NCBI GenBank assembly: GCA_003156715.1
Contig: PMHO01000038.1
Span: forward strand, 21,891 to 61,717
From: Vulcanimicrobiota bacterium
GTDB taxonomy: Bacteria > Vulcanimicrobiota > Vulcanimicrobiia > Vulcanimicrobiales > Vulcanimicrobiaceae
DNA length: 39,827 nt
Direction of reading: 5' to 3'
Part shown: positions 1,529 to 20,185 of the stretch, one piece after another
Layout: the number at the start of each line of letters is the position of its first letter
How positions within the stretch are numbered: the stretch's first letter is position 1
Made by a program: the position numbers and the translations under genes
The notes under the pieces: generated by a model
What the model was told of the DNA's origin: nothing
Databases searched by the model: none
The model's input: only the letters and a program-made list of their open reading frames with translations

Positions 1529-2712
1529 GCGGCGCCGGGCCTTGCCGCATCTTCCTTGTAGCGCTGGGCGCCGACGGCGACGGAGCGGCCGCGCGACTGC
1601 AGACGGCCCTCGAGAAGGCGACGATCGATGCGACGTATCGTTCGGATTCTGCGGGCGCACGGGAGTCGGCTGCAGCGTTGGGCGGCGCACGGGACGTTCC
1701 GGTCCTGGTCGATCCGCGTCTGCGCGATCTGGACGCGACGCGTGGCGAATCGGTCGCCGGCGCTCTCGAACGCGCGTGGCCTGCCTTTTGCGAGCTGGCC
1801 CGCGCACACCAAGAAGGGACGGTTCTGGTCGTCAGCCACCCTGCGATCGTACAGGCCCTGCTGTGCTCCGTAACGGAGGCGGGCGAACCCAACTATCAGC
1901 GTTTTGCCGTAAGGCCGCTGGGTCTGACGATGGTGGAGGTCGGAACCGACGGGCGCGGCGTTTTGCGCGCGCTAAACGCGAACCTCGACCCGAATGCGAT
2001 CGCGCGAAAGGCACCGGCCACGCGCGTGCTAATGATCCGCCACGGGCACGCGATGAGCGTTGAAAAAGGCGCCCCGGCGTACAGCCACAACCCCATACCG
2101 CTGAGCCGGCTGGGAGAGGAACAGGCGATGCGGGTGGCAGCAGCCCTGAGCACCGTCCAGGTCGACGGCATTTTCAGCTCGGATATCGTGCGAGCGCGGC
2201 AGACGGCGGAATTCTGCGGACGCGCTCTTGGGCTGGAAGTCGTAACCGACCGTAGCCTGCGCGAGCTTGCGCTCGGCGAATTTGAAGGAATGACTCTCGA
2301 GCGCGTCCATGCCTCCCATCCGGCGTTCATCCCGTGGCTCGAGGTCGTCTTTCGAAACCGTTTCCCCTCGGCTGACTTCCATCACCCCGCCGACCTGCGC
2401 TTCCCGAACGGGCAAAGCGTGCTCGACGTCCATGACAGCTCGCTGGCGGGCGTTCTTCGCATCCTCGAGACCGAACGCGGACGAACGATCCTCCTCGTTT
2501 CGCACGGCTGGGTTCTGCAGCCGCTGATCTGTCACATCGTTGGCGCCGATCCGCAGGCATACTATCGCTTCACCCTTCCGACCGCTACCGTAGCGATGGC
2601 GGAGGTGGAAGCCGACGGTCGCGGCGTACTCGAAATCTTCAACGGGGGCGTCGCCCTCGAGGACCTGCCAAAGCTCACCGGCGCCGATGGGAGACTTGCC
2701 GATGTCCGCTGA
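1525..2712 (+). CDS. Tandem histidine-phosphatase (phosphoglycerate-mutase superfamily) protein. The N-terminal repeat is degenerate and the C-terminal repeat is catalytically intact.
   Basis: The second half has RVLMIRHGHAMS (the RHG motif), SSDIVRARQTAE and LLVSHGWVLQPLI. The first half starts CRIFLVALGADGDG, so it has no RHG, but it keeps LVVSHPAIVQALL. The start overlaps the upstream stop as ATGA at 1525-1528. Confidence 0.8.
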   Translation: MSGAGPCRIFLVALGADGDGAAARLQTALEKATIDATYRSDSAGARESAAALGGARDVPVLVDPRLRDLDATRGESVAGALERAWPAFCELARAHQEGTVLVVSHPAIVQALLCSVTEAGEPNYQRFAVRPLGLTMVEVGTDGRGVLRALNANLDPNAIARKAPATRVLMIRHGHAMSVEKGAPAYSHNPIPLSRLGEEQAMRVAAALSTVQVDGIFSSDIVRARQTAEFCGRALGLEVVTDRSLRELALGEFEGMTLERVHASHPAFIPWLEVVFRNRFPSADFHHPADLRFPNGQSVLDVHDSSLAGVLRILETERGRTILLVSHGWVLQPLICHIVGADPQAYYRFTLPTATVAMAEVEADGRGVLEIFNGGVALEDLPKLTGADGRLADVR

Positions 2713-3331
2713 CGTAAGCGACGAGAAGACCTACGCGGTTCTCACCGCCATCTTGCTCAAGAAAGTGAGCGACGCGAGCGCGCTGTCGGAGGCGACGGGA
2801 CTGCCACTCGACGATACCGGGCGCATCCTGGGCGAGCTCGAGAAGAGGCAAGCCGTTTTCTCCATGAACTCGAGCGTCATGGCGACCGAAAGCGGGACGG
2901 CGCTCGTCAAGGAGATTGCGGCACGCAACTACGGCGAACTGCGAGGCGACCCCGAACTCGAGCGCTGGCACGCGCGCTTCGAGCCGCTCAACCGGCAGTT
3001 CCTGAGCGCCGTCACCGCGTGGCAGACCGTCGATGTCGGTGGTACGAAACTGAGCAACGATCACAGCGACAGCGAATACGACGACAAGGTACGCTCGCGC
3101 CTCGATGGCCTCGTCAATAAGATGAGCCACCTGCTCGAGGAGATCGGCGCCAAGGTCCCACGCTTGCTGCGCTATCGCGACCGGCTAAACGGTGCGCTCG
3201 ACAAGAGCTATGCGGGCGACTCGCGATTCATCTCCGACGTGCGCGTCGATTCCTTGCACACCGTCTGGTTCGAGATGCACGAAGACGTTCTGCTGGTGCT
3301 GGGTAAGGAACGGACCGATGCCGGCGGCTGA
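2687..3331 (+). CDS. Hypothetical protein, about 210 aa; the start may instead be ATG 2702
   Basis: It overlaps the end of the phosphatase gene by 11-26 nt and the start of the PPDK-like gene by 14 nt, which suggests translational coupling. The N-terminus (TYAVLTAILLKKVSDASALSEATGLPLDDTGRILGELEKRQ) looks winged-helix-like, and I recognise no catalytic motif. Confidence 0.5.
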   Translation: MGDLPMSADVSDEKTYAVLTAILLKKVSDASALSEATGLPLDDTGRILGELEKRQAVFSMNSSVMATESGTALVKEIAARNYGELRGDPELERWHARFEPLNRQFLSAVTAWQTVDVGGTKLSNDHSDSEYDDKVRSRLDGLVNKMSHLLEEIGAKVPRLLRYRDRLNGALDKSYAGDSRFISDVRVDSLHTVWFEMHEDVLLVLGKERTDAGG

Positions 3332-5888
3332 CGCGCCGCCGGTCGCGCCGGACCAGCAGCAGCCGGCGCGCGTGCTGACCTTCGAAGCGGGAGACCACCA
3401 CAACGTCGACCTGCTCGGCGGAAAGGGCGCGGGGCTGGTGCGCATGACGGCGGCCGGTTTACCCGTGCCGCCGGGCTTCATCATCACGACCGAAGTTTGT
3501 CGCGAGCGACAACGTGAGGGCCGCTTGCCGTCCGATCTGCTCGACGAGATCGCTCGGTACATGCGGGTGCTCGAAGGACGAACCGGCCGAGGTTTCGGCC
3601 ATGGCCCGGCACCGCTGCTCGTTTCGGTCCGTTCGGGCGCGCCCGTCTCGATGCCAGGCATGATGGAAACGATCCTGAACCTCGGCCTCAACGCGCAAAC
3701 CGCCGAGGCGCTGGCGCGCGAGACGGGCGATCCGCTCTTTTCAGCGACCGTTTTCGTGCGCTTCATGCGCATGTACGGCGAGATCGTCCTCGGCGCAACC
3801 GGCGAGGCAGTCGATCGTGCGGCCGCGCCGCTGCTGGCGACGTTGCGTGACCGTCCCGATGCTGTCTCGATGCGGGCGCTTTCCGATGCCTGCCAGGCCG
3901 CGTTGCGCGAGGACTGCGGCGACGAGGTTCCCGCGGATGCCTTCGAGCAAGTCGCCGGGGCAATCGGCGCCGTTTTCGATTCGTGGAACTCGCGGCGCGC
4001 GATCACCTACCGTAATTTCCACGGGATCGCGCACGATCTCGGAACGGCGGTCGTGGTGCAGGCCATGGTGTTCGGCAATCTCGGTACGCCGTCCGGGACC
4101 GGCGTCGCGTTCTCGCGCGATCCGCTGAGCGGCGAACCGACCCTGTTCGGCGAGTTCCTCGAAGGCGGCCAAGGTGAAGACGTCGTGGCGGGAACGCTAA
4201 CGCCGCAGAAGATTGCGCAGGCCGCCGCGCGCTTTCCGGAACTGTTCGCCGAGTTCGAGGGCGTCGCGCGCCGCCTCGAAGAGCTGTACCGCGACGTCGT
4301 CGACATTGAATTCACCGTCGAGCGCGGGAAACTGTTCATCCTACAGGTGCGATCGGCGAAGCGCACGGCCCAGGCGGCACTGCGCATTGCGGCCGACTTC
4401 CTTACGGAAATGCGCTTGAGCGAGGCCGACGCGCTGCGCAGCGTTACGCTTGCGCAGGTGCGACAGGTCGGGCGGCCTGGTTTCGAACCCGCCGCGGTCG
4501 CGCGCGCAAAGTCCGAAGGAAGGCTGCTCGGCTCCGGCATCGGCGCGTCGCCTGGACAAGTGAGCGGCCGGGTCGCCCTCGATCCCGACCGGGCCGAAGC
4601 TGCAGCAAAAGGATCGAACGGGGCGGGCTCGATCATCTTAGTGCGCCCGACGACGAGCCCGCACGACCTTCACGGCATGATCGCGGCGCGAGGCATCCTG
4701 ACCTCACTGGGAGGCGCGACCAGTCACGCCGCCGTGGTCGCGCGCGCCCTCAACAAGGCGTGCGTCGTCGGCTGCGACCGTTTGACGATCGACGCGGAAA
4801 AGCGCCGTTTCCGCCTCGACCAAACATGGTTCGACGAGGGGGACGAAATCTCGATCGACGGCGCCACGGGCGAACTTTTTGCGGGCGCTCTCCCGGTCGT
4901 CCCGGGCGGCGCGTCGACGCCGCAGATCGAGGCATTGCTGGCCGTTGCCGATCGGCTCGCGCGCTGCCGCATCTTCGCCCGAGTCGCAACCACCGCTCAG
5001 ATCGCGACCGCGCTTGCGTGTGGCGCGACGGGCGTCGCGATCCGCTTGGGCGACGTCTTGACGACGTCCGGCAAGCTCGGCGAATTTATCGACGCGGCGC
5101 TGGCACAACGCGAGGGCAGTTCGGCCGTCGTCCAGATGGCGCAAACGCTCGCGGATTTGCTCGCGCCGCTGCTGGCCGCGTCCGGCCACGCCGACTTCGC
5201 GCTGCGCGCGGTCGATCTCGCTACCGGAGAGGCCACCGAACTCTTGCGAACGGTCGATCTGTTCGCACGCGAGCCGCGGCTGGCGCTGCCCCTGGGCGTA
5301 CCGGAGTTGATCGAGGTGCAGGTGCGGGCCATGGCGCTTGCGATCGAACGCGCGGGCTACGGCGGCAGCGCGCAGTTCATCGTACGGCATATCAACGATC
5401 CAAGCGAAATGCGCGAGCTGCGGCGCATCGCAAGCGCTGCCTCGGGGAGCGGGCGCGCCGCCATCGCGGCAGGCGCCACAATGACGAGCGTTCACGGCGC
5501 CCTGCTCGCATCCGAAATCGGCCGGCATGCCGACGTGCTCTGGCTCGAAGCGCGCAGCCTGATCGCCAACGCCCACGGTTACCCTTCCACGCTGATGCTG
5601 ACCGCCGATCCGCTCGACGACTACCTGCGCCGGGGCCTCTTGAGCGCGGACCCGCGCACGACCCTCGACGAATCGATGACGCGGCTTTTTCTCAGCGTGG
5701 CGGGCGCTGCCGTGAGCAACCCGGAATGTCGCATCGGCATCCGCCTTTCGGGGCAGCTTTCGGAGCAAATGGTGGCCACTCTCTTCCGCAGCGGTTTCCG
5801 TTCCTTCATCGTCGATCCGGACGAGGTTCGCGTTGCCCGCGTCGCGCTCGGACGCGAAGCCGCCGCGATGAACCCGGCGAACGGGTAA
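3318..5888 (+). CDS. Pyruvate,phosphate dikinase-like PEP-utilising enzyme. It has a canonical N-terminal ATP-grasp domain and phospho-His swivel domain, and a divergent C-terminal domain.
   Basis: Three PPDK hallmarks are present. LLGGKGAGLVRMTAAGLPVPPGFIITTEVC and PLLVSVRSGAPVSMPGMMETILNLGLN are PPDK_N hallmarks. GSIILVRPTTSPHDLHGMIAARGILTSLGGATSHAAVVARALNKACVVGC is the swivel domain with the catalytic His. The ~380-aa C-terminus lacks an obvious GTNDLTQ/Cys motif. The start is ATG 3318, and track residues 3192-3317 are not protein-like. Confidence 0.8.
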   Translation: MPAADAPPVAPDQQQPARVLTFEAGDHHNVDLLGGKGAGLVRMTAAGLPVPPGFIITTEVCRERQREGRLPSDLLDEIARYMRVLEGRTGRGFGHGPAPLLVSVRSGAPVSMPGMMETILNLGLNAQTAEALARETGDPLFSATVFVRFMRMYGEIVLGATGEAVDRAAAPLLATLRDRPDAVSMRALSDACQAALREDCGDEVPADAFEQVAGAIGAVFDSWNSRRAITYRNFHGIAHDLGTAVVVQAMVFGNLGTPSGTGVAFSRDPLSGEPTLFGEFLEGGQGEDVVAGTLTPQKIAQAAARFPELFAEFEGVARRLEELYRDVVDIEFTVERGKLFILQVRSAKRTAQAALRIAADFLTEMRLSEADALRSVTLAQVRQVGRPGFEPAAVARAKSEGRLLGSGIGASPGQVSGRVALDPDRAEAAAKGSNGAGSIILVRPTTSPHDLHGMIAARGILTSLGGATSHAAVVARALNKACVVGCDRLTIDAEKRRFRLDQTWFDEGDEISIDGATGELFAGALPVVPGGASTPQIEALLAVADRLARCRIFARVATTAQIATALACGATGVAIRLGDVLTTSGKLGEFIDAALAQREGSSAVVQMAQTLADLLAPLLAASGHADFALRAVDLATGEATELLRTVDLFAREPRLALPLGVPELIEVQVRAMALAIERAGYGGSAQFIVRHINDPSEMRELRRIASAASGSGRAAIAAGATMTSVHGALLASEIGRHADVLWLEARSLIANAHGYPSTLMLTADPLDDYLRRGLLSADPRTTLDESMTRLFLSVAGAAVSNPECRIGIRLSGQLSEQMVATLFRSGFRSFIVDPDEVRVARVALGREAAAMNPANG

Positions 5889-5894
5889 CGCGGC

Positions 5895-8177
5895 GTGCTC
5901 GTGCCGCAAGCGCTTCGTGCGCGTCCCAAACCCTCCCAGCCGGCCCGCATGTCGGCCGCCTCGATCGAACGCGCCTTGCGCAGGTTGGCGGTTGCGGCAG
6001 AGCGGGGCTACCATGTGTTGCTTAGCGAGGCGGAAGAAATATTTGCTGGACTGACCGGCTCGAAGCGCGCGCGCGTTTTTCTCTACGCCGGCGGCTGTTG
6101 GCGCGCGTGGGATTCGATTGAAAATGCGGCAGCAGACAACGCCGCGACGTGGCCGCAGTCCGAGCCGTCGACCTGGAACCGAATCGCCGAACTCAACGGC
6201 GACCAGTTCGTCCCGGTGCGCGCCGGGAGCCTTGCCGTGTTGCTCGAGGGGCCGCGCGGCGGTAAGGAGGGCGAGCACGTCGCGGGCATTGCCGCGGCTG
6301 CCTTCGACCTAGCGCTGACCGCTTGCCAGCGCCGTTCGCTCTCGAGCGACGAGAGCGACGAGATCGGCGTCATGCAGCGCCTGGCGATGCGCATTCTCAA
6401 GAGCCGCAACCTGCAAGAGATCCTGCTCCTGATCACGCACGAAACCAAGCAGCTGCTGGGGGCCGACATCTGCGGCATCATGCTGCGCGAAGGCGATGCG
6501 GTCGTGATGCAGCGCTGCGTCGGAAACTTTTCGGCCGATACGGCATCGCTGCGCATGCAGGCGGGTCAAGGCCTTGCCGGGCGCGTGTTCGAGACGAAGA
6601 AACCTTGTCACGTCGAGCACTACCTCGAGAGCAACCTGATCAGCAAAGACTTCATGCACCTGGCGCGCATCGAGATGGTGCGCTCGGCGCTCGGCGCACC
6701 GCTGCTCTCGCAGGACGACGCAATCGGCGTACTCGAGGTCTGGCGCCGCCAAATCTCGAAGTTCGACGAGCGCGACACGCGGCGGCTCGTCATGCTCGCG
6801 AACTTGACCTCGGTCGCGATCGAGAATGCCCGCCTCTCGCAAAGCCTCGAAAGCAACATGCTCGAGCTAGCCGCAGCCAACGCAGCGTTGATGGCGCGCT
6901 ACGAAGTGGTCCGCGCTTCGGCGGGCTTTCAACACGAACTGATCCGCTTGCTGCTCGAAGGCAAGAGCCTCGGCACCATCGCCGCCAAAGCGGCAGAGCA
7001 CGTCGATGCCGAGGTGCTGATCCTCGACGCGAACTTCGAGATCGAGGGTGCCTCGCCGGCGTGCGAGCGACTTTCCGACCGGCTGCGCGAACAGATCAAA
7101 GCGGCGCTGCGCAAGGCGCCTTCGAACGGTCCCGAGACGACCGCCGCAATGCTGGAAGGAAAGCCGGCGCTGCTCCAACCGGTCGTCGCCGCAACCGAGC
7201 GGCTCGGTGTGGTCGTCCTTCGACGGCAAACGCCGCTCGATCAAAACGCGCAGCTTGCGCTCAGCCAAATCTGCATCGTGACATCGCTGCACCTGATCGA
7301 GCGCCGCGCCGCCGCGCGCGCCCGGGCGGAGACGCTCGGTGCCGTCTTGTGGGACCTCTTGGAAGGGACCGATGACGTCCGGCGCTCGGCTGCGGCCCGC
7401 GCCCGCGACCTGCGCGTCGACCTCGAGGGAGGCCACCGCGTGTTCCTGTGCGCCCTCGACGGCATCGAACAGCAGGCCAATAGCGAGGGCTGGAGCCCGG
7501 GCGAAATCAGCGTACGGCGCAGACGCATCGCACAGACCTACCGCACGGTCGAAGACCTGGAAAAATCGGTGAAGCTCTCGGGCGCGCGCGCCAACTTCGT
7601 GGCGCTGGTTTGCGGGGGCGAGGCGGTTCGCGATGCGGAGCGTTTGGGAGCCAAGCTTGCGGCTGCCATCGCCGCGAACGTCACGGGACTCTCGGTCCAG
7701 GTCGGCATCAGCACGCCGTGTATCGGCCCGGCCTCTTTGAGCGCGGCGTATCGTGAAGCCAAAATATCGCTCGAGGTGGCCCGCCAGCGCGGCCGCGTCG
7801 CGGCGGCCTGTTACGAGGATGCAGGGATCGTCGGCATGCTGCTGAGCTTGCGCGCGGAGGCTGACGTCAAGAAAGTCGTGCACACGATCTTCGGGCCGCT
7901 GCTCGAGGAGAAAGCGCAGACCCGCGACCTGCTGTTCGGAACGCTCAAAGCCTTTTTCGAGCTAAACTGCTCGCGCCGAGCCGCCGCGAAAAAGCTTCGC
8001 GTCCACGAAAAGACGATCGTTTACCGGCTGGCGAAGATCGAATCGCTCACGGGTCTCGACTTCAGCAAGCACGAGAAGCGTCTCTTGGCGGACATCGCCT
8101 TGCAGATGTACGGCATGTCGGCGGAACGCGTCGCTTCAGGGCTTCCTTGGATCGATAACGACCTTCATCGCCCGTAA
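5895..8177 (+). CDS. Transcriptional regulator with a central GAF domain and a C-terminal PucR/CdaR-type HTH
   Basis: The C-terminus FGTLKAFFELNCSRRAAAKKLRVHEKTIVYRLAKIESLTG is a PucR-type HTH. The central region (MQRLAMRILKSRNLQEILLLITHETKQLLGADICGIMLREGDAVVM...) is GAF-like. Its 3' end overlaps the convergent ADH gene by 42 bp. Confidence 0.8.
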   Translation: MLVPQALRARPKPSQPARMSAASIERALRRLAVAAERGYHVLLSEAEEIFAGLTGSKRARVFLYAGGCWRAWDSIENAAADNAATWPQSEPSTWNRIAELNGDQFVPVRAGSLAVLLEGPRGGKEGEHVAGIAAAAFDLALTACQRRSLSSDESDEIGVMQRLAMRILKSRNLQEILLLITHETKQLLGADICGIMLREGDAVVMQRCVGNFSADTASLRMQAGQGLAGRVFETKKPCHVEHYLESNLISKDFMHLARIEMVRSALGAPLLSQDDAIGVLEVWRRQISKFDERDTRRLVMLANLTSVAIENARLSQSLESNMLELAAANAALMARYEVVRASAGFQHELIRLLLEGKSLGTIAAKAAEHVDAEVLILDANFEIEGASPACERLSDRLREQIKAALRKAPSNGPETTAAMLEGKPALLQPVVAATERLGVVVLRRQTPLDQNAQLALSQICIVTSLHLIERRAAARARAETLGAVLWDLLEGTDDVRRSAAARARDLRVDLEGGHRVFLCALDGIEQQANSEGWSPGEISVRRRRIAQTYRTVEDLEKSVKLSGARANFVALVCGGEAVRDAERLGAKLAAAIAANVTGLSVQVGISTPCIGPASLSAAYREAKISLEVARQRGRVAAACYEDAGIVGMLLSLRAEADVKKVVHTIFGPLLEEKAQTRDLLFGTLKAFFELNCSRRAAAKKLRVHEKTIVYRLAKIESLTGLDFSKHEKRLLADIALQMYGMSAERVASGLPWIDNDLHRP

Positions 8178-9182: not shown

Positions 9183-9184
9183 GC

Positions 9185-11230: not shown

Positions 11231-12631
11231 TCACTTGAGATCGTACAGCGAGCGCCACGGCCGGATCTCGTGTGCGATGCGCTTGATGTTGATGAGATGC
11301 AGCGGCGTAACGTTGTCGGAGACGATCGATCCGCTCCAGGTTCCGGTGCCCAGCATGAACGACGGATCCGTGGCAGCGCTGAAGCCCATTCCGCCGAACA
11401 AGCTCGGCGTATTGCAAAGAATGCGTGCGGCCGGGAGGGACGCGAACTTGGCAATCACCGCGTCGTCGCCCGCGTGGAGGCCGAGCGTGTGGCCGGCGCC
11501 GCCGAAATCGAGAACCTGCCGGCAGCGTTCGTAAGCGGCGTCCGCGTTCTTGGCGCGATAGAACGACAGAACCGGGCCGAGAATCTCACGCGACAACGGG
11601 GTTTGCGGCCCGACGTCGTGCAGCTCGGCGGCGAGCACGCGGCAATTCGCTTCGACGCGCGCCCCGATCCGGTCCGCCAGAACGCGCGCCGATTGTCCGA
11701 CCGACTGCGGCCGCAGATCGCCGCCCTCGGTAAAGAGAAGCGACGCCAAGCGCTGCGCCTCCTCCGCACCAAGAAAGACGGTGCCCTGCGCTTCGAAAGC
11801 CGTAAAGGCGGCGTCGGCGATAGGCTCGTCGAGGACGACCGATTGTTCGGCGACGCAGGCCGTTCCGTTGTCGAAGGCTTTCGAAGTGACGATCATCGTC
11901 GCCGCTTCGAGCAGGTCCGGGACGGAGCGATCGATGTATGCCGGCACGTTGCCGGGCCCGACTGCCAGCGTCGGTTTACCAGAAGAATAGGCAGCGCGCA
12001 CCATGCCGGCGCCGCCGGTTGCCAGGACCATCGAGACGGCCGGATGGCGCATCAACTCCTGCGTCGACTCGAGCGTAACGCTCTCCAGACACGAGATCAG
12101 GCCGCGCGGCGCCCCAGCCCGCTCGGCCGCGCGGGCCATGATCTCGGCCGTGCGCGCGCAACAGCGCACCGCGCGCGGATGCGGCGCGCAAACGATGGCA
12201 TTCCCCGACTTGACCGCCGCCAGGCATTTGAACAGGACGGTCGAGGTTGGATTGGTGACGGGGATGATGGCGGCCAAAACGCCCATCGGTGAGCCGACGG
12301 CCGCCATCCGGTTCGGCTCGTCGACCCACAGAACACCGAGCGTGCGCATCTCCAGCATCGCTTGGGCCACGAAGCGCGCGTTGTAAAGATTCTTGTAGAC
12401 CTTGTCGGCGACGACGCCGTAGCCGGTCTCCTCGACGGTGAGCCGGGCGAGTTCTTCGGCCGCGGCCGCCCCGGCGTTTGCCATTGCGCTCACGATGCGG
12501 TCGACCACCGCTTGCGTGGCGCCGTCGAACGACTCGAAGGCGGCCCGTGCGTCGCGCGCTTTCGCGCGCGCTTCAGCGAGCGCGATCAGGTCGGAATCGG
12601 CTTCGAGCGCAGCCATCGCGCCCCCAGGCAC
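11231..12631 (-). CDS. CoA-acylating aldehyde dehydrogenase (PduP/EutE family)
   Basis: The ALDH fold is clear. VGPGNVPAYIDRS and TSKAFDNGTACVAEQSVV match the PduP/EutE catalytic-Cys motif, and the C-terminus (...VTPLHLINIKRIAH) is EutE-like. A GTG start at 12631 sits 9 nt downstream of a GGAGGA RBS. No long N- or C-terminal extension is evident. Confidence 0.9.
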   Translation of the reverse strand: MPGGAMAALEADSDLIALAEARAKARDARAAFESFDGATQAVVDRIVSAMANAGAAAAEELARLTVEETGYGVVADKVYKNLYNARFVAQAMLEMRTLGVLWVDEPNRMAAVGSPMGVLAAIIPVTNPTSTVLFKCLAAVKSGNAIVCAPHPRAVRCCARTAEIMARAAERAGAPRGLISCLESVTLESTQELMRHPAVSMVLATGGAGMVRAAYSSGKPTLAVGPGNVPAYIDRSVPDLLEAATMIVTSKAFDNGTACVAEQSVVLDEPIADAAFTAFEAQGTVFLGAEEAQRLASLLFTEGGDLRPQSVGQSARVLADRIGARVEANCRVLAAELHDVGPQTPLSREILGPVLSFYRAKNADAAYERCRQVLDFGGAGHTLGLHAGDDAVIAKFASLPAARILCNTPSLFGGMGFSAATDPSFMLGTGTWSGSIVSDNVTPLHLINIKRIAHEIRPWRSLYDLK

Positions 12632-12661
12632 GATCGATTATCCTCCGGGATCCCGCGGTCG

Positions 12662-12964
12662 CTACTTGAGCTTGCCGAGAATCAGGTCCACGTCTTCGTG
12701 GGGCCGTGGGATCACATGCACCGAGATCACCTCGCCGACCTTGCCGGCCGCAGCCGCGCCGGCATCGGTCGCGGCCTTGACCGCCCCGACGTCGCCGCGG
12801 ACCATGACGGTGACGAGGCCACCCCCGATTTGCTCTCGGCCCATCAGCCGGACGTTGGCTGCTTTGACCATCGAATCGGCCGCCTCGATCGCTGCGACGA
12901 GGCCCTTTGTTTCGATGAGACCGAGCGCGCCGCCCGGGGACTCCGAGCTACCTGGTGCTGCCAT
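12662..12964 (-). CDS. BMC-H shell protein (single BMC domain; PduA/EutM/CcmK-like)
   Basis: [77 protein letters not shown] is a canonical BMC domain. An AAAGGGGGG RBS lies upstream. Confidence 0.9.
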
Positions 12965-12988
12965 GACACTGACCCCCCTTTTGCTTTA

Positions 12989-13294
12989 CTACTTGACGAA
13001 CGTGGTGCGCGAATCGAGCCGGGCACTGTCGACGATGGCGACGATGGCGGCATCGGTCGGAACGCGCGCCGTGCCCTCGTCGACGCGCGCGGCGCCGCCG
13101 TGCGCGACCAAAACGATCTCGCCCTCGCCGACGCCGACCAGGTCGATGGCGGCATACACCGCGGCGCTTGCATCGCCGTCGCCGCCAAGCGGATCGCGCG
13201 GATCGACCTCTCGAACCAACAAAAGTTTGTAGCTCGACAGACCGTCGGCTTTGACCGTGGCGACGACGTTTCCGCACACCCGCCCTAGGCGCAT
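12989..13294 (-). CDS. BMC-P vertex protein (EutN/CcmL/PduN family)
   Basis: From the internal ATG 13294 the sequence runs MRLGRVCGNVVATVKADGLSSYKLLLVREVDP...AAIDLVGVGEGEIVLVAHGGAAR...AAIVAIVDS. An AAAGGG RBS lies upstream, and it is the first gene of the - strand operon. The track ORF 12989..13429 over-extends by 45 codons. Confidence 0.85.
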   Translation of the reverse strand: MRLGRVCGNVVATVKADGLSSYKLLLVREVDPRDPLGGDGDASAAVYAAIDLVGVGEGEIVLVAHGGAARVDEGTARVPTDAAIVAIVDSARLDSRTTFVK

Positions 13295-13470
13295 CGTTTG
13301 GAACCCTTTCGTAGCTTGGCCCCCACTATAGGTTCGGGACCGCCACGCCGTCATGCTCGCGACCGGATAAAAAGCTCCGCCAACTTCTATCCGCACCGCC
13401 CGTAGCGCCTCGAGCCTCATCGTGGACAATTGAGAGCACGGGCGGCGCGGCCGTCCGAGGAGGATTCGTT

Positions 13471-14493
13471 TTGATCCAAGATGCGGATGCGGACTTTCAC
13501 GGGCGCGATTCGAGCGACCCCACCTGGTCCGAAACGAACTACTTCGCCTTCTACGAGCCGCAGTCGCGTTTAAACGTCGGTCTGTACGCGCTTTTCCGGA
13601 CGACCCTGGGAACGGTCGGCTCGACGATCTGCATCAATTCCGGCCGGTCTTTGACGCCGTGGGAAGCCGATTTCTGCGACATGCGCTCCTCGCTGCCGAT
13701 TCCGAAGCCCTACGACCTGCGCGCTTACAAGCTCGCCAACTCGCTCGCGGTCCGTACGATCGAGCCCAACCGCGTCTGGGATCTGCGCTACGATGACGGC
13801 GAAGGTACGCGGGTCGACGTGCGCTGGGAGGCGCTGATGCCGGGCTTCGACATCCACGATCCGGCCGAAGATCCGATGGCGGCGGCGGCGAGTCACGCGC
13901 AGGCCGAGGGCAAGTTCGCCTGGGGAACCGCCTACAACGGCCATTTCGATCAAACGGGGCGCGCCCACGGTACGGTCGCCGTTCGCGGCAAGGCGTATGA
14001 AATCGACTGCGTTTCCACCATGGACCACAGTTGGGGTCCGCGCCCCGAGCGCGGCGCCCCGCCGATGTGTTGGCTCGGCGCCCATTTTTCAAAAGATTTC
14101 GCGATGCATGCCATCTTCAGCTTCGATCCGGCCCAGAACCCGACGGGGCTACGCTTGACGCACGGTTACGTCCTCGAGCGGGGGAAGGTTTTCGGTCTTA
14201 AAGCGGGGAGTGGCCGCACGGTGCGCGGGAGCGACCGTTACGCCGAGACCATCGAGCTCACCGTAACCGACCGGGCCGAACGCACGTGGAACTTCTCCGG
14301 CGCCGGCTTGACGACGTTTCCCTGGCTATGCTGGCCGAATATGGTCGGCTTCAACGTCCTGACGCGTTGGGAGTGCAACGGCTTGACGGGCTACGGCGAG
14401 ATCTACGACTTCTACGAGCTGCCGCTGCTCGCGTCGCTCAACGGCTCGCCCGCGACCCGCATCGCATCGAGGCCGGCCTCCGTGAACGCCTGA
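13471..14493 (+). CDS. Hypothetical protein (340 aa), Trp-rich and probably a beta-rich fold; function unknown
   Basis: A TTG start is preceded by a strong GAGGAGG RBS 6 nt upstream. It is transcribed divergently from the BMC shell operon across a 176-bp intergenic region. I recognise no family motif with confidence; any resemblance to AttH/CrtC-type lipocalin hydratases is vague. Confidence 0.55.
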   Translation: MIQDADADFHGRDSSDPTWSETNYFAFYEPQSRLNVGLYALFRTTLGTVGSTICINSGRSLTPWEADFCDMRSSLPIPKPYDLRAYKLANSLAVRTIEPNRVWDLRYDDGEGTRVDVRWEALMPGFDIHDPAEDPMAAAASHAQAEGKFAWGTAYNGHFDQTGRAHGTVAVRGKAYEIDCVSTMDHSWGPRPERGAPPMCWLGAHFSKDFAMHAIFSFDPAQNPTGLRLTHGYVLERGKVFGLKAGSGRTVRGSDRYAETIELTVTDRAERTWNFSGAGLTTFPWLCWPNMVGFNVLTRWECNGLTGYGEIYDFYELPLLASLNGSPATRIASRPASVNA

Positions 14494-14497
14494 GCCG

Positions 14498-15487
14498 ATG
14501 CCGCCGCGCGCGATCCTCTTCGACTTCGACGGCACCCTCGTTCAAACGCGCGAGGCTTCCTGGGAGCTGTTCGCTCAAACCAATCGCGAGTTTGGCCTGG
14601 GCATCGAGGATCGCGACGCTTTTTTCGATCTCTTTAACGACAACTTTTTCCGGGCTCTCGCCGCCCGTTGCCCCGACAAGACGAAGCTCGATGCGGCCAA
14701 GCACCACTTTCTCGAGCTCCTTCGCACGCAGTACACGCCGCCGCTGGTACCGGGCCTGGCCGACGTGGTGCGAACCCTGGCGAGCCGCTGCACGCTCGTC
14801 GTCCTCTCCACCAACACGATCGCAACGATTCGACGCGTGCTGAGCGAAGCCGGCGTGGCGACGTGTTTCGCGCACGTCTTCTCGGGCGACGTGGAACCCG
14901 ACAAGAGCGTCAGCATGCGGCGCTTCCTCGCCGACGCAGGTTACGGCGTCGGACGGCGCTGCTCGCCTGCGTACGACGAGCTCAACGGCGCGCGCGACGA
15001 AGGCGGCGTAGCACTGATTACCGACACGGCAGGCGACGTGAAGGAGGCGTTGGCTTGCGGCGTTCGCGCCATCGGCGTCGCGTGGGGCATGCACGGCGAA
15101 TCCGAGCTGCTTGCAGCCGGCGCCGAAACGGTGGCGGTTTGGCCGCAAGAGCTCATCGCTTGGCTTGCGTCGGGCGAGCCCGCGCCTGGTGCGACGGCCT
15201 GTTTGCTTCCTCCCAAGGGCGCCTGCGCATGCGAGGGCGCTACCTCGACACCGTGCGCTTGTCCGCACGAACCGGCCGCTACGGCAGCCGAGCGCGTTGC
15301 CGCCGCCGCGCGCGTGCGCCGCGCGCGCAACTCCGAGCGCTTGGAGGAGGCTCGCCGCACCCGGTTTTGGGATCGCAGCGAATCCGTGCTTCGCTCGGAG
15401 CCGCCGCCGGCCGTGCCGCGCGCGCCACCGCCGTCAGAACCCGAACTGCTGGCGACGCTGCGGCGTCTGCGTCACATCCAGGTTTGA
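14498..15487 (+). CDS. HAD-superfamily phosphatase (phosphoglycolate-phosphatase-like) with a ~100-aa C-terminal tail
   Basis: The N-terminus ILFDFDGTLV is HAD motif I, and later motifs are VVLSTN and GDV...D. The tail has a Cys cluster (CLLPPKGACACEGATSTPCACPHEP), an Ala/Arg-rich segment, a Pro-rich segment (EPPPAVPRAPPPSEPE) and ends LLATLRRLRHIQV. It starts 4 nt after the upstream stop. Confidence 0.8.
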   Translation: MPPRAILFDFDGTLVQTREASWELFAQTNREFGLGIEDRDAFFDLFNDNFFRALAARCPDKTKLDAAKHHFLELLRTQYTPPLVPGLADVVRTLASRCTLVVLSTNTIATIRRVLSEAGVATCFAHVFSGDVEPDKSVSMRRFLADAGYGVGRRCSPAYDELNGARDEGGVALITDTAGDVKEALACGVRAIGVAWGMHGESELLAAGAETVAVWPQELIAWLASGEPAPGATACLLPPKGACACEGATSTPCACPHEPAATAAERVAAAARVRRARNSERLEEARRTRFWDRSESVLRSEPPPAVPRAPPPSEPELLATLRRLRHIQV

Positions 15488-15518
15488 ACGTGCATCTTCG
15501 CTGAGGAGGACAGAAGCA

Positions 15519-15935
15519 ATGACAGTTTTAGCCGAAGGTTACAACGCCTTCGAAACACCCAAATCGCCGACCGGCGTCGTCAAGTACCTCGGTGACCCGA
15601 CTGCGGTTATCGCGCTGATCTCGAGCGGCAAACTGCAAGACCACATCATCCTGGCGCAGGGCGGAACGACGACCTTCCTGTCCCCGGCGCTCACCATGGG
15701 ATGCCTCGGCGTCATCACGCTCTCGGGTGCGCCCGAGTCCCATCTCGGCATCCTGTCGCGCGAGTTTCAAATCCCGTGCATCATGACCGCCTATCAGCCG
15801 AACACCGAAACCCGCTACGTCACGGGCGGCAACAACGACGAGCACTTCAAGCAAATGATTGCAGCTCTCGACGGGAAGAAAGTCCGTCTCAAGTGCGACC
15901 ATCACGACGTCGCGCAGGTACTCCTCGAAGACTGA
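15519..15935 (+). CDS. Stand-alone PEP-utilising-enzyme mobile (phospho-histidine swivel) domain protein, 138 aa
   Basis: ATG 15519 follows a GAGGAGGA RBS. The sequence LQDHIILAQGGTTTFLSPALTMGCLGVITLSGAPESHLGILSREFQIPCIM resembles the GG.TSHAAI.ARE.GIP swivel motif, with a candidate catalytic His in ESHLG. Confidence 0.7.
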   Translation: MTVLAEGYNAFETPKSPTGVVKYLGDPTAVIALISSGKLQDHIILAQGGTTTFLSPALTMGCLGVITLSGAPESHLGILSREFQIPCIMTAYQPNTETRYVTGGNNDEHFKQMIAALDGKKVRLKCDHHDVAQVLLED

Positions 15936-15986
15936 CCCTCGTAACTTCACGTCTTACGCAGCGCTCAAGACAAGAGAGGAAACGCG

Positions 15987-17408
15987 ATGATAGATCATAT
16001 GGCCGGTTATTTGAAGCGGTACGAACCCGACGACAACGGGCTGCGCTTCCAGGACCTGGTCTACCAAGGCAACTTCAAGGGGATGGAGCCCGTTCCCGAC
16101 GGGATTCTCGGCGACAAGATCATGCGCCAGCGCGCAAAGAGCAAGGTCCTCGAGAAAGTCAGCCACCAGGACGTGCTCAGAGACAACTTCACGATCGACG
16201 AGCTCAACGATCTCAACAACTACCTGGCCTGGAACATTTGGGACGTGCTCGTCATGCGCGCGACCGAGGGCGTGTCGGGCATGATCCCGCGCCAGGAATA
16301 CGAGATCTTGGCGTTTATGCACGAGTTCTACCGCTGGCCGGAGATCCTGCGCATGACCAACGATGAGGTTGGAGCACAAGCGATCATCGACATCGGCAAG
16401 AGCGCCCGGCGCGAGATCGGAACGAAGGTGAACTGCGTTCACGACTGGTGCATCGGCGCGGTCGGATTCGGCATGGGCCGCTGCGGACTGCTCGCCCTCG
16501 AAGTCATCAAACCGCAAGATTTCGTCGAGGAAAGCAACATCATCCTCAAGTTCATGCAGCGCGTTCTGTGGGGCAAGCGCCAAGACGGCTACATCCTCAA
16601 CTCGCAAGATCGCTACCGCTGCTTGATCCACGACCAAGATTTCCTGGACACGCTGACGCCGCAGCTCGAGGAGATCGAGGCAGGCAGTGAAAAGCACGAC
16701 GCTTTCGTCCGCTTCAACGCGACCGCCGAGCTGCTCGCCTTCCTCGACCACTACGACTGCCGCCTCGGTCTAGGGGACACCGGGCCCTATCCACTTCCGG
16801 ACGGAAAGGTCTTGATCGTTCGCGACCTTTTCTGCAACGAAGAAGTCTACCACTGGAGCGACGTGTGCGATCACGAGAAGGTCCCGCACGCGTACACGAT
16901 GCTGGTCGTCCTGGATGCGGCCAAGATGGGGCTCGAGGAAATTCGGGTCAACGACATCTCGACGACCTTCACCCGGCCCAAGAACTACATCCCGTATATC
17001 ACCGCAGGCGCGGTGTTCGTGCGCGAGAAGTGGAACACGCCCATGTCCGAGGTGTACTCCGTTCCCATCAAGGATCTCGCACCGCGGCTGCATGGCGTGC
17101 AGCAAGCCACGCTCAAGCTCTACACCAAGACCTCGCGCATGTCGCGCCGCCAGTTGATCACCAACGGAATGTACGATTACTACATCGAGATGATCTTACC
17201 CCACTTGCGACTGGCCGGAACGTACGAGAAGGCGTGCAAGGAGTACGACTTCTGGGAGATCGACCATCGCATCTCGGATTACTACTACGACATCACCAAG
17301 CGCGGCTTCGCACAGGCAACCGTGCCGCAGAAGATCTTCTCGGGCGAAGGCTACCTGCCGTTCCCGGACAACGTCGATCCGCGGCGTTCGAAGTACTTCT
17401 GGGATTAA
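15987..17408 (+). CDS. Hypothetical protein (473 aa), Cys/His-containing, with Asp/Glu/Lys/Tyr-rich composition; function unknown
   Basis: It has an AGAGAGG RBS. This is a long clean ORF whose amino-acid composition and apparently lower GC differ from its Ala/Arg-rich neighbours. It lies between the swivel-domain gene and the second BMC-H. I recognise no family motif. Confidence 0.6.
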   Translation: MIDHMAGYLKRYEPDDNGLRFQDLVYQGNFKGMEPVPDGILGDKIMRQRAKSKVLEKVSHQDVLRDNFTIDELNDLNNYLAWNIWDVLVMRATEGVSGMIPRQEYEILAFMHEFYRWPEILRMTNDEVGAQAIIDIGKSARREIGTKVNCVHDWCIGAVGFGMGRCGLLALEVIKPQDFVEESNIILKFMQRVLWGKRQDGYILNSQDRYRCLIHDQDFLDTLTPQLEEIEAGSEKHDAFVRFNATAELLAFLDHYDCRLGLGDTGPYPLPDGKVLIVRDLFCNEEVYHWSDVCDHEKVPHAYTMLVVLDAAKMGLEEIRVNDISTTFTRPKNYIPYITAGAVFVREKWNTPMSEVYSVPIKDLAPRLHGVQQATLKLYTKTSRMSRRQLITNGMYDYYIEMILPHLRLAGTYEKACKEYDFWEIDHRISDYYYDITKRGFAQATVPQKIFSGEGYLPFPDNVDPRRSKYFWD

Positions 17409-17477
17409 CGCCGTTTGGCCGGCATCGGGGTTACGTACGGTAGCGTGCGTAGCCCCAATGCGGCCGGCGAGAGCGCG

Positions 17478-17774
17478 ATGATTGAGACGTTTGGGGTTGA
17501 GGCTCTGGGGCTGGTCGAGACCTTCGGCCTGGCAGCGGCCGTGGAGGCGGCCGATGCGATGGTGAAGACCGCGAGCGTCCGCGTCATTACCAAGCAGCAG
17601 CCAGGCGGCGGGCTCATCGCCATCATGGTGACCGGGGAAACGAGCGCCGTGCAGTCCGCGGTCGATGCCGGCGTCGCAGCGGCCGAGCGCGTCGGCCGCG
17701 TCGTCAGCCGGCGCGTCATCGCCAGACCTGACGCAGACATTCTCGACCTGCTCGAGCGGCCGCCGGTGCGTTGA
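17478..17774 (+). CDS. BMC-H shell protein, second copy (satellite)
   Basis: From the internal ATG 17478 the sequence runs MIETFGVEALGLVETFGLAAAVEAADAMVKTASVRVITKQQPGGGLIAIMVTGETSAVQSAVDAGVAAAERVGRVVSRRVIARP, a canonical BMC domain. Confidence 0.85.
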   Translation: MIETFGVEALGLVETFGLAAAVEAADAMVKTASVRVITKQQPGGGLIAIMVTGETSAVQSAVDAGVAAAERVGRVVSRRVIARPDADILDLLERPPVR

Positions 17775-17830
17775 GCGGCACCCCCGCGCAAAGGCGCGGG
17801 AGCTGCCGGGGTAGGCAAGAAGGTAGCCGC

Positions 17831-18730
17831 ATGAAGCGGCCTACCTCCTTGCGCGCGGCTCGGAAGCCGCCGCTCTCGAAAAAGGCCGCCTCGCATCGTC
17901 TCACGGGCTCGACGGCGGCGGCTTCCAAACCGGCGTTCAAGCCCGTTCTCCACCGCCGGGCTTTTGAAGACGTCATCTTCCAGATCGAGGAAGCGATCTT
18001 GGACGGGCGGCTCGCCGTCGGCGACCGGCTGCCTCCGGAGCGCGAGCTGGCCGAAGCATTTCAGGTAAGCCGCCCATCCGTGCGCGAAGCCTTGCGCGTG
18101 TTGGAGGCGTTTGGAATCTTGAGCGCGCGGCGCGGCGCGGGTTCCGAATCCGGTTCGGTCGTGCGCGGCGAAAACAACCAGGGCCTGGCCAACACCCTGC
18201 GGCTGTACGTCTCGCTGCTGCGCATACCGCTGCTCGATTTGCTTGAGATTCGAGAAGCGCTTGAGACCTGGTCTTTTCGCGGCGCGGCGGCCCGGGCGAC
18301 GCCCGACGCACTCACGCGCCTCGGACGGCTAGTCGACCAGATGGACGCCGCGCTCGATCCCGAGGTTTTCTTGGAACGCGATACCGAATTCCACGTAGCG
18401 ATCGCGAAGATGTCGGGTAACGCGGTGGCGCCGCTGTTCACCGAGGCCTTGCGCGAAGCGATCGCGCGCCAAATTCTCGACGCGTTCCGAAAACTCGACG
18501 ACTGGCCTGCCGAGCACGCGTGGCTCGTCGCCGAGCACCGCGGTTTGGTGGCGGCGATTCGATCCGGCGTGGCGGAAAAAGCGGCCGGTGCCGCAAGCGA
18601 TCACATCCGCGACTTCTACCGGCGGATGTTCGGTCCGCAGCCGAGCGTGGCCGCGCCGGCGCGCCCCGCACGGGCATCCCTTGGACGGCGCAAACGCAAG
18701 GCCGGCGGCGGGAATTCGCGTTTGGCCTGA
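17831..18730 (+). CDS. GntR-family transcriptional regulator, FadR/FCD subfamily
   Basis: The HTH is LPPERELAEAFQVSRPSVREALRVLEAFGIL, followed by a helical FCD-like C-terminal domain. The start is ATG 17831; the longer TTG 17771 start would overlap the BMC-H stop. Confidence 0.8.
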   Translation: MKRPTSLRAARKPPLSKKAASHRLTGSTAAASKPAFKPVLHRRAFEDVIFQIEEAILDGRLAVGDRLPPERELAEAFQVSRPSVREALRVLEAFGILSARRGAGSESGSVVRGENNQGLANTLRLYVSLLRIPLLDLLEIREALETWSFRGAAARATPDALTRLGRLVDQMDAALDPEVFLERDTEFHVAIAKMSGNAVAPLFTEALREAIARQILDAFRKLDDWPAEHAWLVAEHRGLVAAIRSGVAEKAAGAASDHIRDFYRRMFGPQPSVAAPARPARASLGRRKRKAGGGNSRLA

Positions 18731-18787: not shown

Positions 18788-20185
18788 ATGAGCCGAGTGC
18801 TAGAGACCCCGCGCAAACGTGACAGCCTTCCCTACGGCGGTTACTACCGTCACGACGACGAGTCGGTTCCCAAGTCCGAGCGGGAGCTGACGCACGCCGG
18901 CCCGGGCAGCCCGATGGGCGAATACATGCGCCGTTTCTGGCAGCCGGTGTGCCTTTCGCAGGAGCTTACCGACGTCCCGAAAGCGATCCGCATCCTTCAC
19001 GAGGACCTGGTCGTCTTCAGAGACCGCAGCGGCCGCATCGGCCTGCTGCATCTGCATTGCAGCCATCGCGGGACGTCGCTAGAGTTCGGCATCGTGCAGC
19101 AACGCGGCATTCGCTGTTGCTATCACGGCTGGCTGTACGACGTCGATGGAACGGTCCTGGAAATGCCGTGCGAGCCGAGCGACACGCGCCTCAAGCAGAC
19201 CGTTTGCCAAGGAGCCTATCCAGCGTTCGAGCGCGACGGTATCGTCTTTGCATACATGGGGCCGCCCGAAGCGAAACCGGTCTTCCCGGAATACGACGCG
19301 TATCGGATGCCGGCCGGAACGCGCCTGGTCCCCTTCTCAAACCTCTATGCCTGCAATTGGCTGCAAGTCTACGAGAATCTGATCGACCACTTTCATTCGG
19401 CCGTTCTGCACAACAACATGACGGTCGATAGCATCGACGCGGAGCTCGCGGCCGGCCTGAACTTAGGGGAAGGCTTCCGCGAGATGCCGGTCATCGAATG
19501 GCATGCAACGCGCAACGGCAACGGTCTGATCTTCTCCGCGGCGCGGCGCGTGGCCGACGACCGCATTTGGATTCGCATCACCGAGCAAAACTTCCCCAAC
19601 TTCGTTGCCACCGCGTCGCTGGTCCCTTCGGCCGCGCGCTTGCGGCACACCACCGTCGCGATGTCGCGCTGGCAAGTACCCGTCGACGACGAGAACATGA
19701 TCGTTCTGGGGTGGCGGCACTTCAACGATGAGATCGATCCCGACCACATGGGATGCGCGGAAGACTGCGGCGTCGACCGCATCGATTTCCTCGATGGGCA
19801 AACGCGGCACCGCACCTACGATGAGAAGCAGCGCGCGCCGGGCGACTACGAAGCGATGACAAGCCAACGCCCGGTCGCCCTCCATCATCTCGAACATCCC
19901 GGTAAGTCGGATGTGGGCGTCTACACCTGCCGGCAGCTTTTGCGCGACGCGGTCCGCGGCAAAGCGTCCTCGAACGGTCACGCGCCCGCCGGCGAGTCGC
20001 TGCCCGTGTACACCTCCGATTCCGTGCTGCGCCTGCCGCGCCGGGAGGGACCGGAGGACCGCGAGCTGCTCGTGCAAACCGCGCGCCGCGTCGTCGAAAT
20101 CATGCGCGAATGCGACGAGTTACCTTCCGCGGAGCGCAACGAGCACGCCTTGAAGCGCCTCGACGAACTCGACGGCGGCTTGTAG
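18788..20185 (+). CDS. Rieske [2Fe-2S] non-haem-iron oxygenase alpha subunit
   Basis: The Rieske motif is CSHRGTSLEFG...CCYHGWLYD (CxH...CxxH). The C-terminal catalytic domain is His/Asp-containing, and there is a GGGAG RBS. No reductase or ferredoxin partner is present in this window. Confidence 0.85.
   Translation: MSRVLETPRKRDSLPYGGYYRHDDESVPKSERELTHAGPGSPMGEYMRRFWQPVCLSQELTDVPKAIRILHEDLVVFRDRSGRIGLLHLHCSHRGTSLEFGIVQQRGIRCCYHGWLYDVDGTVLEMPCEPSDTRLKQTVCQGAYPAFERDGIVFAYMGPPEAKPVFPEYDAYRMPAGTRLVPFSNLYACNWLQVYENLIDHFHSAVLHNNMTVDSIDAELAAGLNLGEGFREMPVIEWHATRNGNGLIFSAARRVADDRIWIRITEQNFPNFVATASLVPSAARLRHTTVAMSRWQVPVDDENMIVLGWRHFNDEIDPDHMGCAEDCGVDRIDFLDGQTRHRTYDEKQRAPGDYEAMTSQRPVALHHLEHPGKSDVGVYTCRQLLRDAVRGKASSNGHAPAGESLPVYTSDSVLRLPRREGPEDRELLVQTARRVVEIMRECDELPSAERNEHALKRLDELDGGL

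Follow-up and report, generated by a model that had tools for sequence, protein, structure and literature searches.

A candidate multi-component phospho-histidine enzyme encoded with the MIC1 microcompartment of a Vulcanimicrobiota bacterium

Bacterial microcompartments of the MIC1 type have been catalogued since 2014 as metabolosomes for which no signature enzyme is described (PMC4207490; PMC8217296, Supplementary Data 2) and no substrate is known. Which enzyme, then, could open the pathway that such a compartment serves? The question is raised by a stretch of 39,827 nucleotides from a Vulcanimicrobiota bacterium (GenBank assembly GCA_003156715.1, contig PMHO01000038.1, positions 21,891 to 61,717 of the forward strand), referred to here, at its full length, as the window. 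Within a MIC1 locus of this window, a stand-alone phospho-histidine swivel domain of 138 amino acids (plus strand, 15519..15935) and a 473-aa protein (plus strand, 15987..17408) are encoded next to each other. It is proposed that these two proteins, together with a 214-aa protein (plus strand, 2687..3331) and a protein resembling pyruvate phosphate dikinase (PPDK) (PPDK-like protein; plus strand, 3318..5888), could be the subunits of one conserved multi-component phospho-histidine enzyme of the dikinase type, a candidate signature system for MIC1. We lean towards this proposal rather than away from it, on the basis of gene linkage, natural gene fusions, a conserved histidine, the constrained core formed by the 473-aa protein, an invariant motif in the 214-aa subunit, and the tail carried by a phosphatase of the HAD family encoded just upstream.

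The open reading frame (ORF) for the swivel protein starts at an ATG at 15519, ends at 15935 and contains GAPESHLGILSREFQIPCIM. Its only Pfam match is PF00391, the mobile domain of enzymes that utilise phosphoenolpyruvate (PEP), with 30.1 bits over a cut-off of 23.1 (E 3.8e-7, residues 49-95), and the same domain is carried by all 120 swivel homologues among the matches listed, so that an earlier sequence-only reading of this DNA was right in describing the protein as a swivel domain and nothing else. The predicted phospho-acceptor, His75, is invariant and sits in a G-x-x-(S/T)-H motif. An alignment, the check that had been suggested for this residue, finds the catalytic histidine in place, in register with the swivel histidine of the PPDK-like protein, with the motif GGRTSHAAIVSRELGIPCVVG of the PEP synthase 8a8e and with His189 of Enzyme I; when folds were compared, the 138-aa protein was found to have that of a swivel domain. 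As had been read, the 473-aa ORF follows after a spacer of 51 nt, with its ATG at 15987. Strong Shine-Dalgarno sites (GAGGAGG and AGAGAGGAAA) precede both starts, and no terminator-like site was found on either strand between 14702 and 18581. With a GC content of 0.83 at third codon positions (GC3), compared with 0.35 at second positions (GC2), the 473-aa ORF is clearly coding. The GC content falls to 58-60% at 15500-17500, compared with about 65-69% elsewhere in the window, and, taking into account the GC3 value, this dip at the 473-aa gene reflects a protein rich in Lys, Asn, Tyr and Asp and not foreign DNA. The exact sequence of the window recurs in metagenome contigs of several ENA, JGI and Logan samples.

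The 473-aa protein had been described as lacking any motif that could be placed, and this description holds: no Pfam or NCBIfam match was obtained, permissive thresholds included, and no match to the PDB was found by sequence, by profile or by fold. In the better of the models of the fused proteins described below, the fold matches outside the swivel are generic helical bundles of about 100 residues only. No well-known unrelated family emerged from the remote-homology search and the comparison of predicted structures, and thus the suggestion that this protein is a candidate novel catalytic partner of the swivel gains in plausibility. In contrast, the Cys and His content to which attention had been drawn carries no weight, since only His255 is conserved across the superfamily. 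The residues conserved superfamily-wide are mostly charged (D86, R91, E94, R102, E106, K147, H255, D257, R259, D264, R279 and R346), a set that would fit a phosphate or metal site.

The distribution of the family is broad. Among the candidates scored, 708 proteins at 90% clustering matched the 473-aa family, which at 50% identity resolves into 259 clusters; in a collection holding one genome per species, 169 stretches were confirmed to contain relatives. The hosts include Bradyrhizobium, Xanthobacter, Methylocella, Variovorax, Pseudomonas, Pseudonocardia, Amycolatopsis, Actinomycetospora, Nakamurella and others. The genes of the window were compared by tblastn with 80 of these 169 relative loci, with denominators that vary by gene. 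The 473-aa gene is immediately preceded by the swivel gene in 78/78 loci and immediately followed by a homologue of the 214-aa gene in 67/69, with the PPDK-like gene no more than 2.5 kb downstream in 59/63; genes for the HAD phosphatase (65/70 loci) and for a protein with DUF7065 and DUF7064 domains (DUF7064 gene; 64/70) accompany it as well. The order in the 80 other genomes is a fixed one: DUF7064, HAD, swivel, 473-aa, 214-aa and PPDK-like. In the window, the 214-aa and PPDK-like genes sit about 10 kb upstream (2687-5888), beside a PucR/GAF regulator; judging from the linkage counts elsewhere, both are normal operon members, and their separation here is therefore a local rearrangement. The sequence-only reading had noticed the PPDK-like gene at that distance (a PPDK_N and swivel protein at 3192/3318-5888) and had joined it with the swivel and 473-aa proteins in one split system, a suggestion that the linkage, the swivel-473 fusions and the conserved histidine now favour; it had missed the 214-aa component.

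Across these loci, the 473-aa protein is the most conserved and most constrained member of the module, with a median identity of 76%, followed by the acylating aldehyde dehydrogenase (AldDh) of the MIC1 locus (66%), the swivel (64%), DUF7064 (54%), HAD (52%), PPDK-like (48%) and 214-aa (36%) proteins. Since the other module genes are lower, the constraint is intrinsic to the 473-aa protein and not the mark of a recent transfer of the whole locus. The value of about 76% is maintained between Actinobacteria and Proteobacteria, a degree of conservation that would mark this protein as a strongly constrained catalyst without a known family, and it is proposed to be the substrate-binding and catalytic partner of the swivel.

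The third subunit and the natural fusions bind these genes together more closely. The 214-aa protein has a winged-helix-like N-terminus and a helical bundle at its C-terminus, where the motif S-x-H-x-x-W-x-E-x-H-E-D (window 3251-3286) is found in 81/81 homologues and in all 67 aligned fusions. This motif, a possible metal or phosphoryl site, is invariant despite an overall identity of the subunit of about 36%. The fused proteins P0252, P0260 and P0262 (772-794 aa) contain the swivel, the 473-like and the 214-like parts in one chain, whereas P0269 (594 aa) contains the swivel and the 473-like domain only; Pfam detects the swivel in each of them. The fused proteins are more distant relatives (about 35-38% identity), and their N-terminal swivel retains the motif GAPESHLGILSRE. 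The last ~190 aa of the fusions are homologous to the 214-aa protein (BLASTP 4e-11 with P0252 and 6e-9 with P0260), with SLHTVW.E.HED in common. Relatives of P0252 number 439 at E <= 0.001 (in Conexibacter, Paraconexibacter, Solirubrobacterales, Pseudonocardia and Actinomycetospora), and the 120 among the matches listed are nearly all 700-840 aa long, match over their full length and carry PF00391. The AlphaFold2 model of P0252 is compact and confident (pLDDT 93.0, pTM 0.82). In three such genomes, from Paraconexibacter, Solirubrobacterales and Conexibacter, the fusion is followed by a gene for an ATP-grasp and swivel protein of 509-526 aa without a third domain, and genes for DUF7064/Rv3169-type proteins, HAD and PucR recur nearby.

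The PPDK-like protein is the proposed ATP-dependent phosphoryl donor. Its mechanical ORF starts at 3192 and its likely start is the ATG at 3318 (898 and 856 aa, respectively), which overlaps the stop codon of the 214-aa gene, an arrangement that suggests translational coupling. It consists of an ATP-grasp domain, a His swivel of its own and a divergent C-terminal domain resembling a TIM barrel. PF01326 (PPDK_N, E 1.6e-46) and PF00391 (E 7e-21) are matched, and the protein aligns to PPDK residues 4-558, that is, to the ATP-grasp and swivel parts, while PF02896 has no match in it and Pfam finds nothing in the C-terminal domain. A profile of the last ~280 residues recovers the PEP/pyruvate TIM barrel of PPDK (E 1e-8) and Enzyme I (E 4e-3), with the ligand motifs of the barrel altered: MIEIPRA is replaced by YLTSPRA and GTNDLTQ by LEVRELQ, and the Cys of VGICGE is lost. 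Taking into account that these motifs are replaced and that the partners of the fused family lack the domain, the barrel is read as degenerate and not as the main substrate site. The possibility that the protein is a pyruvate phosphate dikinase proper was rejected, as TIGR01828 reaches 596.7 bits, under its cut-off of 843, and the Mg/PEP ligand motifs are replaced. A comparison by hhalign gave a probability of 0.1-0.2 that the C-terminal domain is related to the 473-aa, 214-aa or DUF7064 protein, and such a relationship was likewise discarded.

Just upstream of the 214-aa and PPDK-like genes, window 1525-2712 encodes a protein of the histidine-phosphatase superfamily (His_Phos_1, with a weak SixA-like match), which could target phospho-His or a phospho-intermediate. 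Such a gene stands beside the module in 0/80 other loci, the single weak match (L071, 26% identity) lying 10 kb off.

How is the module tied to the shell? The complete MIC1 locus spans 8136-17774. Its divergent operon, on the minus strand, encodes a Zn-dependent alcohol dehydrogenase (Zn-ADH; 8136-9182), a protein like malate or lactate dehydrogenase (MDH/LDH-like; 9185-10576) with a 155-aa N-terminal extension, a CcmP-like BMC-T (10573-11193), the acylating AldDh (pfam00171; 11231-12631), a first BMC-H (12662-12964) and a BMC-P (12989-13294), and it is syntenic with that of 41 other shell-containing loci. On the plus strand, 13471-18730 holds, in order, the DUF7065/7064, HAD, swivel and 473-aa genes, a second BMC-H and a GntR/FCD regulator. 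The sequence-only reading had seen the shell gene after the 473-aa gene, and a BMC-H is indeed present at 17478..17774 (plus strand; PF00936, E 6.7e-25); it is not the satellite that it had been taken for but the second of the two hexamer genes in a complete locus. The homologue of this second BMC-H in proteobacterial MIC1 loci comes after the PPDK-like gene, at +4.5 kb.

Both the shell set (2 BMC-H, 1 BMC-P and 1 BMC-Tdp) and the enzyme set (AldDh, LDH/MDH-like, Zn-ADH and phosphatase/hydrolase) match MIC1. No phosphotransacylase (PTAC; PduL or Pta domain) was found among the scanned ORFs of the window, which did not include every small ORF. Moreover, the catalogue trees label the shell proteins of Pseudonocardia thermophila DSM 43832 and Burkholderiales BGO13 as MIC1, and genes of the window have orthologues in the P. 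thermophila locus (L049) and in BGO13 (swivel protein P0149). The window thus shares with the published MIC1 (Axen 2014; Sutter 2021) its shell set, these enzymes and the lack of a PTAC; the published descriptions differ in that they do not mention the swivel, 473-aa, 214-aa and PPDK-like genes and name no signature enzyme, while the window differs in the displacement of its 214-aa and PPDK-like genes by 10 kb.

The clearest tie is the HAD-family phosphatase (plus strand, 14498..15487; HAD_2 and Hydrolase domains), whose C-terminal extension in the window is about 100-105 aa long (15171-15487) and closes with an amphipathic helix, PELLATLRRLRHIQV. The median length of this tail is 76 aa in shell-containing loci versus about 12 aa in shell-less ones (53 versus 18 loci; L007-L085), and it ends in (D/E)ELLxA[IVM]RR[IV]C in Actinobacteria and in LLxSLRRLR in Proteobacteria. 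It is proposed to be an encapsulation-type peptide; the pattern being typical of such peptides, the dephosphorylation step would probably be luminal. In Methylocella, without shell genes, the HAD protein retains a tail of ~40 aa with a related motif, which may be a remnant of an encapsulation peptide. Shell genes are present, in conserved order, in 41/47 full-length loci and absent in 6/47, and the module loci of Methylocella silvestris BL2, whose 473-aa gene is B8ETI3, and Pseudomonas sp. NFACC02 are also without them; the association with a compartment that had been suggested therefore stands as the usual state, and not as a dependence.

A further member, the DUF7065/DUF7064 (Rv3169-like) protein (plus strand, 13471..14493; Pfam and NCBIfam matches), is proposed to act on the phosphorylated intermediate. 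A profile of its family gave only chance-level matches against the PDB. Mycobacterium tuberculosis has a gene pair formed by Rv3168, an APH-like kinase, and Rv3169. In Paraconexibacter (L091, 12971-14941), a kinase of the APH/EcKL type is fused to DUF7065/DUF7064, and this fusion adjoins a full-length Rv3169-family protein and a fused swivel-473-214 enzyme. Taken together, the fusion and the gene pair link the DUF7064/65 family to phosphorylation chemistry.

These observations lead us to infer a phosphotransfer, the direction in which it runs, the position of the active site and the kind of substrate. The ATP-grasp domain of the PPDK-like protein would use ATP to place a phosphoryl group on a swivel histidine, and the group would reach His75 of the free swivel either directly or through a His-to-His relay from the PPDK-like swivel. 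His75 would then swing to a site of the 473-aa core rich in Arg, Lys, His and Asp, to which the 214-aa subunit would add its His-Glu-Asp motif, and would there phosphorylate a substrate that is small and neutral, either an alcohol or an enolisable carbonyl compound. It is further proposed that the phospho-intermediate is processed by the DUF7064/65 protein and the HAD phosphatase to a primary alcohol, which would be converted to the aldehyde and later to the acyl-CoA, with release and oxidation taking place inside the MIC1 shell, given that the HAD protein bears the encapsulation-type tail. In its fullest form, this account has two swivels relaying the phosphoryl group to a novel-fold core so as to activate an unreactive, small and volatile alcohol or ketone, the encapsulated HAD protein carrying out the dephosphorylation and the oxidation proceeding through a toxic enal; we offer this form tentatively, as a possibility that is rather doubtful in its entirety.

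What the substrate could be is suggested by those operons of the module that have no shell. In Methylocella, Pseudomonas, Xanthobacter and Endobacter, they contain a Zn-ADH, a non-acylating aldehyde dehydrogenase (AldDH) and an AMP-forming acyl-CoA ligase, to which those of Methylocella and Endobacter add a carboxyltransferase, a biotin carboxylase, a MaoC-type hydratase and a CitE/HpcH-type lyase. The Pseudomonas operon adds a carboxylase, a hydratase above the AtuE (gamma-carboxygeranoyl-CoA hydratase) cut-off and a 3-hydroxy-3-methylglutaryl-CoA (HMG-CoA) lyase, and its locus also encodes a sigma-54 activator with a MimR-type N-terminal domain and a porin for hydrophobic compounds. As judged from these gene contents, the shell-less operons outline a route of the Liu/Atu type, in which an alcohol would be transformed to an aldehyde and this to an acid or CoA ester, followed by gamma-carboxylation, hydration and cleavage. 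The place of AldDH and ligase would be taken in MIC1 by the acylating AldDh. These operons suggest a product that is turned into a beta-methyl-branched enoyl-CoA. The contexts in Nakamurella and in a gammaproteobacterial metagenome-assembled genome (MAG) do not narrow the substrate. Our guess would be a tertiary allylic alcohol, for instance 2-methyl-3-buten-2-ol or linalool, which would rearrange through an allylic phosphate, for example to prenol and prenal; it would suit both the chemistry and the soil habitat, and is at best an unlikely candidate. In searches of the literature on microcompartments, MIC1, dikinases and PEP-utilizing enzymes, Methylocella, the degradation of hemiterpenes and tert-amyl alcohol, Rv3168/Rv3169 and Bradyrhizobium, no function was found assigned to the module.

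Several points weigh against the assignment of all four proteins to one compartment-linked enzyme. No encapsulation tail is found on the swivel, 473-aa and 214-aa proteins, and in these no tail difference is seen between shell-containing and shell-less loci; no recognisable nucleotide-, phosphate- or substrate-binding motif was found in the 473-aa protein; and in five gammaproteobacterial MAG loci no PPDK-like gene stands near the module. Two swivels in one system are unusual, and we know of no case in which the histidine of one swivel domain passes its phosphoryl group to that of another. An operon that combines a kinase with a phosphatase looks futile, moreover, unless a rearrangement, which is a postulated step, intervenes. 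Lastly, the divergent TIM barrel of the PPDK-like protein might have a substrate of its own. This last point opens the way to a system of two enzymes, in which the PPDK-like protein would be a complete dikinase making a PEP-like enol phosphate at its own barrel, to be used as a donor by the swivel, 473-aa and 214-aa proteins acting on a second substrate, much as Enzyme I of the phosphotransferase system (PTS) uses PEP as its phosphoryl donor. The detectable relationship of the C-terminal domain to the PEP/pyruvate domains of PPDK and Enzyme I, and the swivel histidine owned by the PPDK-like protein, would agree with such a division; nevertheless, we judge it unlikely, as the Mg/PEP ligands of the barrel are replaced and the barrel is absent from the 509-526 aa partner of the fused family, and is thus dispensable for the function that they share. 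A regulatory phosphorelay, resembling the nitrogen PTS and driven by ATP or PEP, could also be imagined to end on the 214-aa protein and to control expression of the operon, as the winged helix-turn-helix-like N-terminus and helical-bundle C-terminus of that protein would allow. It seems rather improbable to us, considering that the helical-bundle matches are generic, that dedicated regulators are already present at the locus, and that the HED motif is invariant.

PPDK-type reactions are reversible, and PPDK makes ATP from AMP in some anaerobes. The system might accordingly be supposed to operate in reverse, forming ATP from AMP and a phosphorylated or acyl-phosphate product and so replacing the phosphotransacylase/kinase pair missing from MIC1, which has no PTAC (PMC4207490); none was found among the scanned ORFs of the window either. 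An acyl-phosphate is not expected, however, in the shell-less operons with their non-acylating AldDH and AMP-forming ligase, and the HAD phosphatase of the operon would waste the phosphoryl group, so that reverse operation appears quite improbable. It might finally be argued that the swivel and 473-aa genes merely adjoin the shell genes, with no functional tie to the compartment, as the module occurs without shell genes in 6 of the 47 full-length loci and no compartment-specific extension is found on the swivel, 473-aa and 214-aa proteins. Mere adjacency is, in our estimate, very improbable in view of the conserved order of the shell genes in the other 41, of the HAD protein encoded just upstream, which gains its encapsulation-type tail exactly with the shells, and of a second BMC-H embedded in the operon of the module.

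Returning to the proposed one-enzyme system, its phosphotransfer logic is of a known kind, that of the swivel-domain dikinases; what would be new is the catalytic core, the subunit architecture and the probable signature role in MIC1. With PPDK and PEP synthase it has in common the ATP-grasp domain and a phospho-His domain swivelling between two active sites, with conserved His motif and fold, whereas the acceptor is here a separate unit of 473-aa and 214-aa proteins and not a PEP/pyruvate TIM barrel, and two swivels are present on two polypeptides. The phenylphosphate synthase PpsABC of Thauera aromatica is a split dikinase in which one subunit binds ATP and another bears the histidine and a non-pyruvate substrate, and which activates an unreactive hydroxyl by phosphorylation at the start of a catabolic route. 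By description, the system proposed here resembles it as a subunit-split dikinase, but its substrate-binding part has no detectable homology to PEP-utilizers, and it has the 214-aa subunit and the second swivel in addition. Rifampin phosphotransferase (RPH) and enzymes of the PigC/RedH type are, in contrast, single chains with another domain order, and the 473-aa core gave no fold match to the RPH substrate domain. Among microcompartments, the RMM type (aminoacetone/1-amino-2-propanol) uses a kinase of the APH type and a pyridoxal phosphate (PLP)-dependent phospho-lyase. The likeness lies in a kinase-made phospho-ester that leads to an aldehyde for the AldDh of the compartment, and the difference in a dikinase-type kinase followed by DUF7064/65 and HAD proteins. 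The APH-DUF7064/65 fusion beside the fused enzyme of Paraconexibacter hints, by analogy, at a chemistry related to that of RMM.

Other features of the window surround these genes. A transcription regulator with GAF and PucR-type domains (plus strand, 5895..8177) travels with the PPDK-like gene, which it follows likewise in Methylocella, Xanthobacter and Endobacter. In the MDH/LDH-like protein, the N-terminal extension (window 10106-10576, minus strand, its first 155 aa) has no Pfam match and may be a targeting or docking domain. More than 30 MIC1 loci from both phyla share a conserved segment of ~40 residues in it, SVFTLRDVEQASGSLRIGPLDVVTPLALDRAKELGITI, behind which comes a variable linker rich in Pro and Ala. 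After the MIC1 locus, window 18788-20185 encodes an oxygenase of the Rieske/LigXa_C type, which in NCBIfam has no more than weak Rieske matches; a tertiary-alcohol oxygenase of the MdpJ type is a conceivable identity for it. A homologue of ~65% identity replaces the PPDK-like gene after the 473-aa and 214-aa genes in the gammaproteobacterial MAG loci L057, L061, L066, L067 and L069, and in L069 it is accompanied by two genes resembling flavin-dependent and Baeyer-Villiger monooxygenases (FMO/BVMO-like), a short-chain dehydrogenase/reductase (SDR) and a glutathione S-transferase (GST). This oxygenase may act upstream in the same pathway.

At the edge of the window, ORF 20-1528 encodes a protein similar to 3-hydroxyisobutyrate and tartronate-semialdehyde reductases. 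Its N-terminal extension of ~200 aa was considered as a targeting domain and rejected: the first ~200 codons are Arg-rich and without homology, which suggests non-coding read-through in an over-extended ORF whose real start is probably near codon 180-205. Further downstream, window 24139-34839 contains two ABC transporter sets of the branched-chain-amino-acid type with permeases, ATPases and binding proteins (27535-29007 and 30154-31446), and between them lies a gene of the GH130 family (28984-30030); no link of any of these genes to the module is evident.

With this analysis, MIC1 gains a concrete candidate for its signature module, and one that is present in culturable and genetically tractable bacteria, such as Methylocella silvestris BL2, Pseudomonas, Variovorax, Bradyrhizobium and Pseudonocardia. 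If the proposal is true, the swivel-domain phosphotransfer enzymes would be extended to a new substrate-binding architecture, and phosphorylation followed by dephosphorylation would be an added way to feed a microcompartment. In the fullest and more doubtful form of the account, the chemistry of MIC1 would be defined as well, and methanotrophs and pseudomonads would have a variant of the same pathway that runs without a shell.

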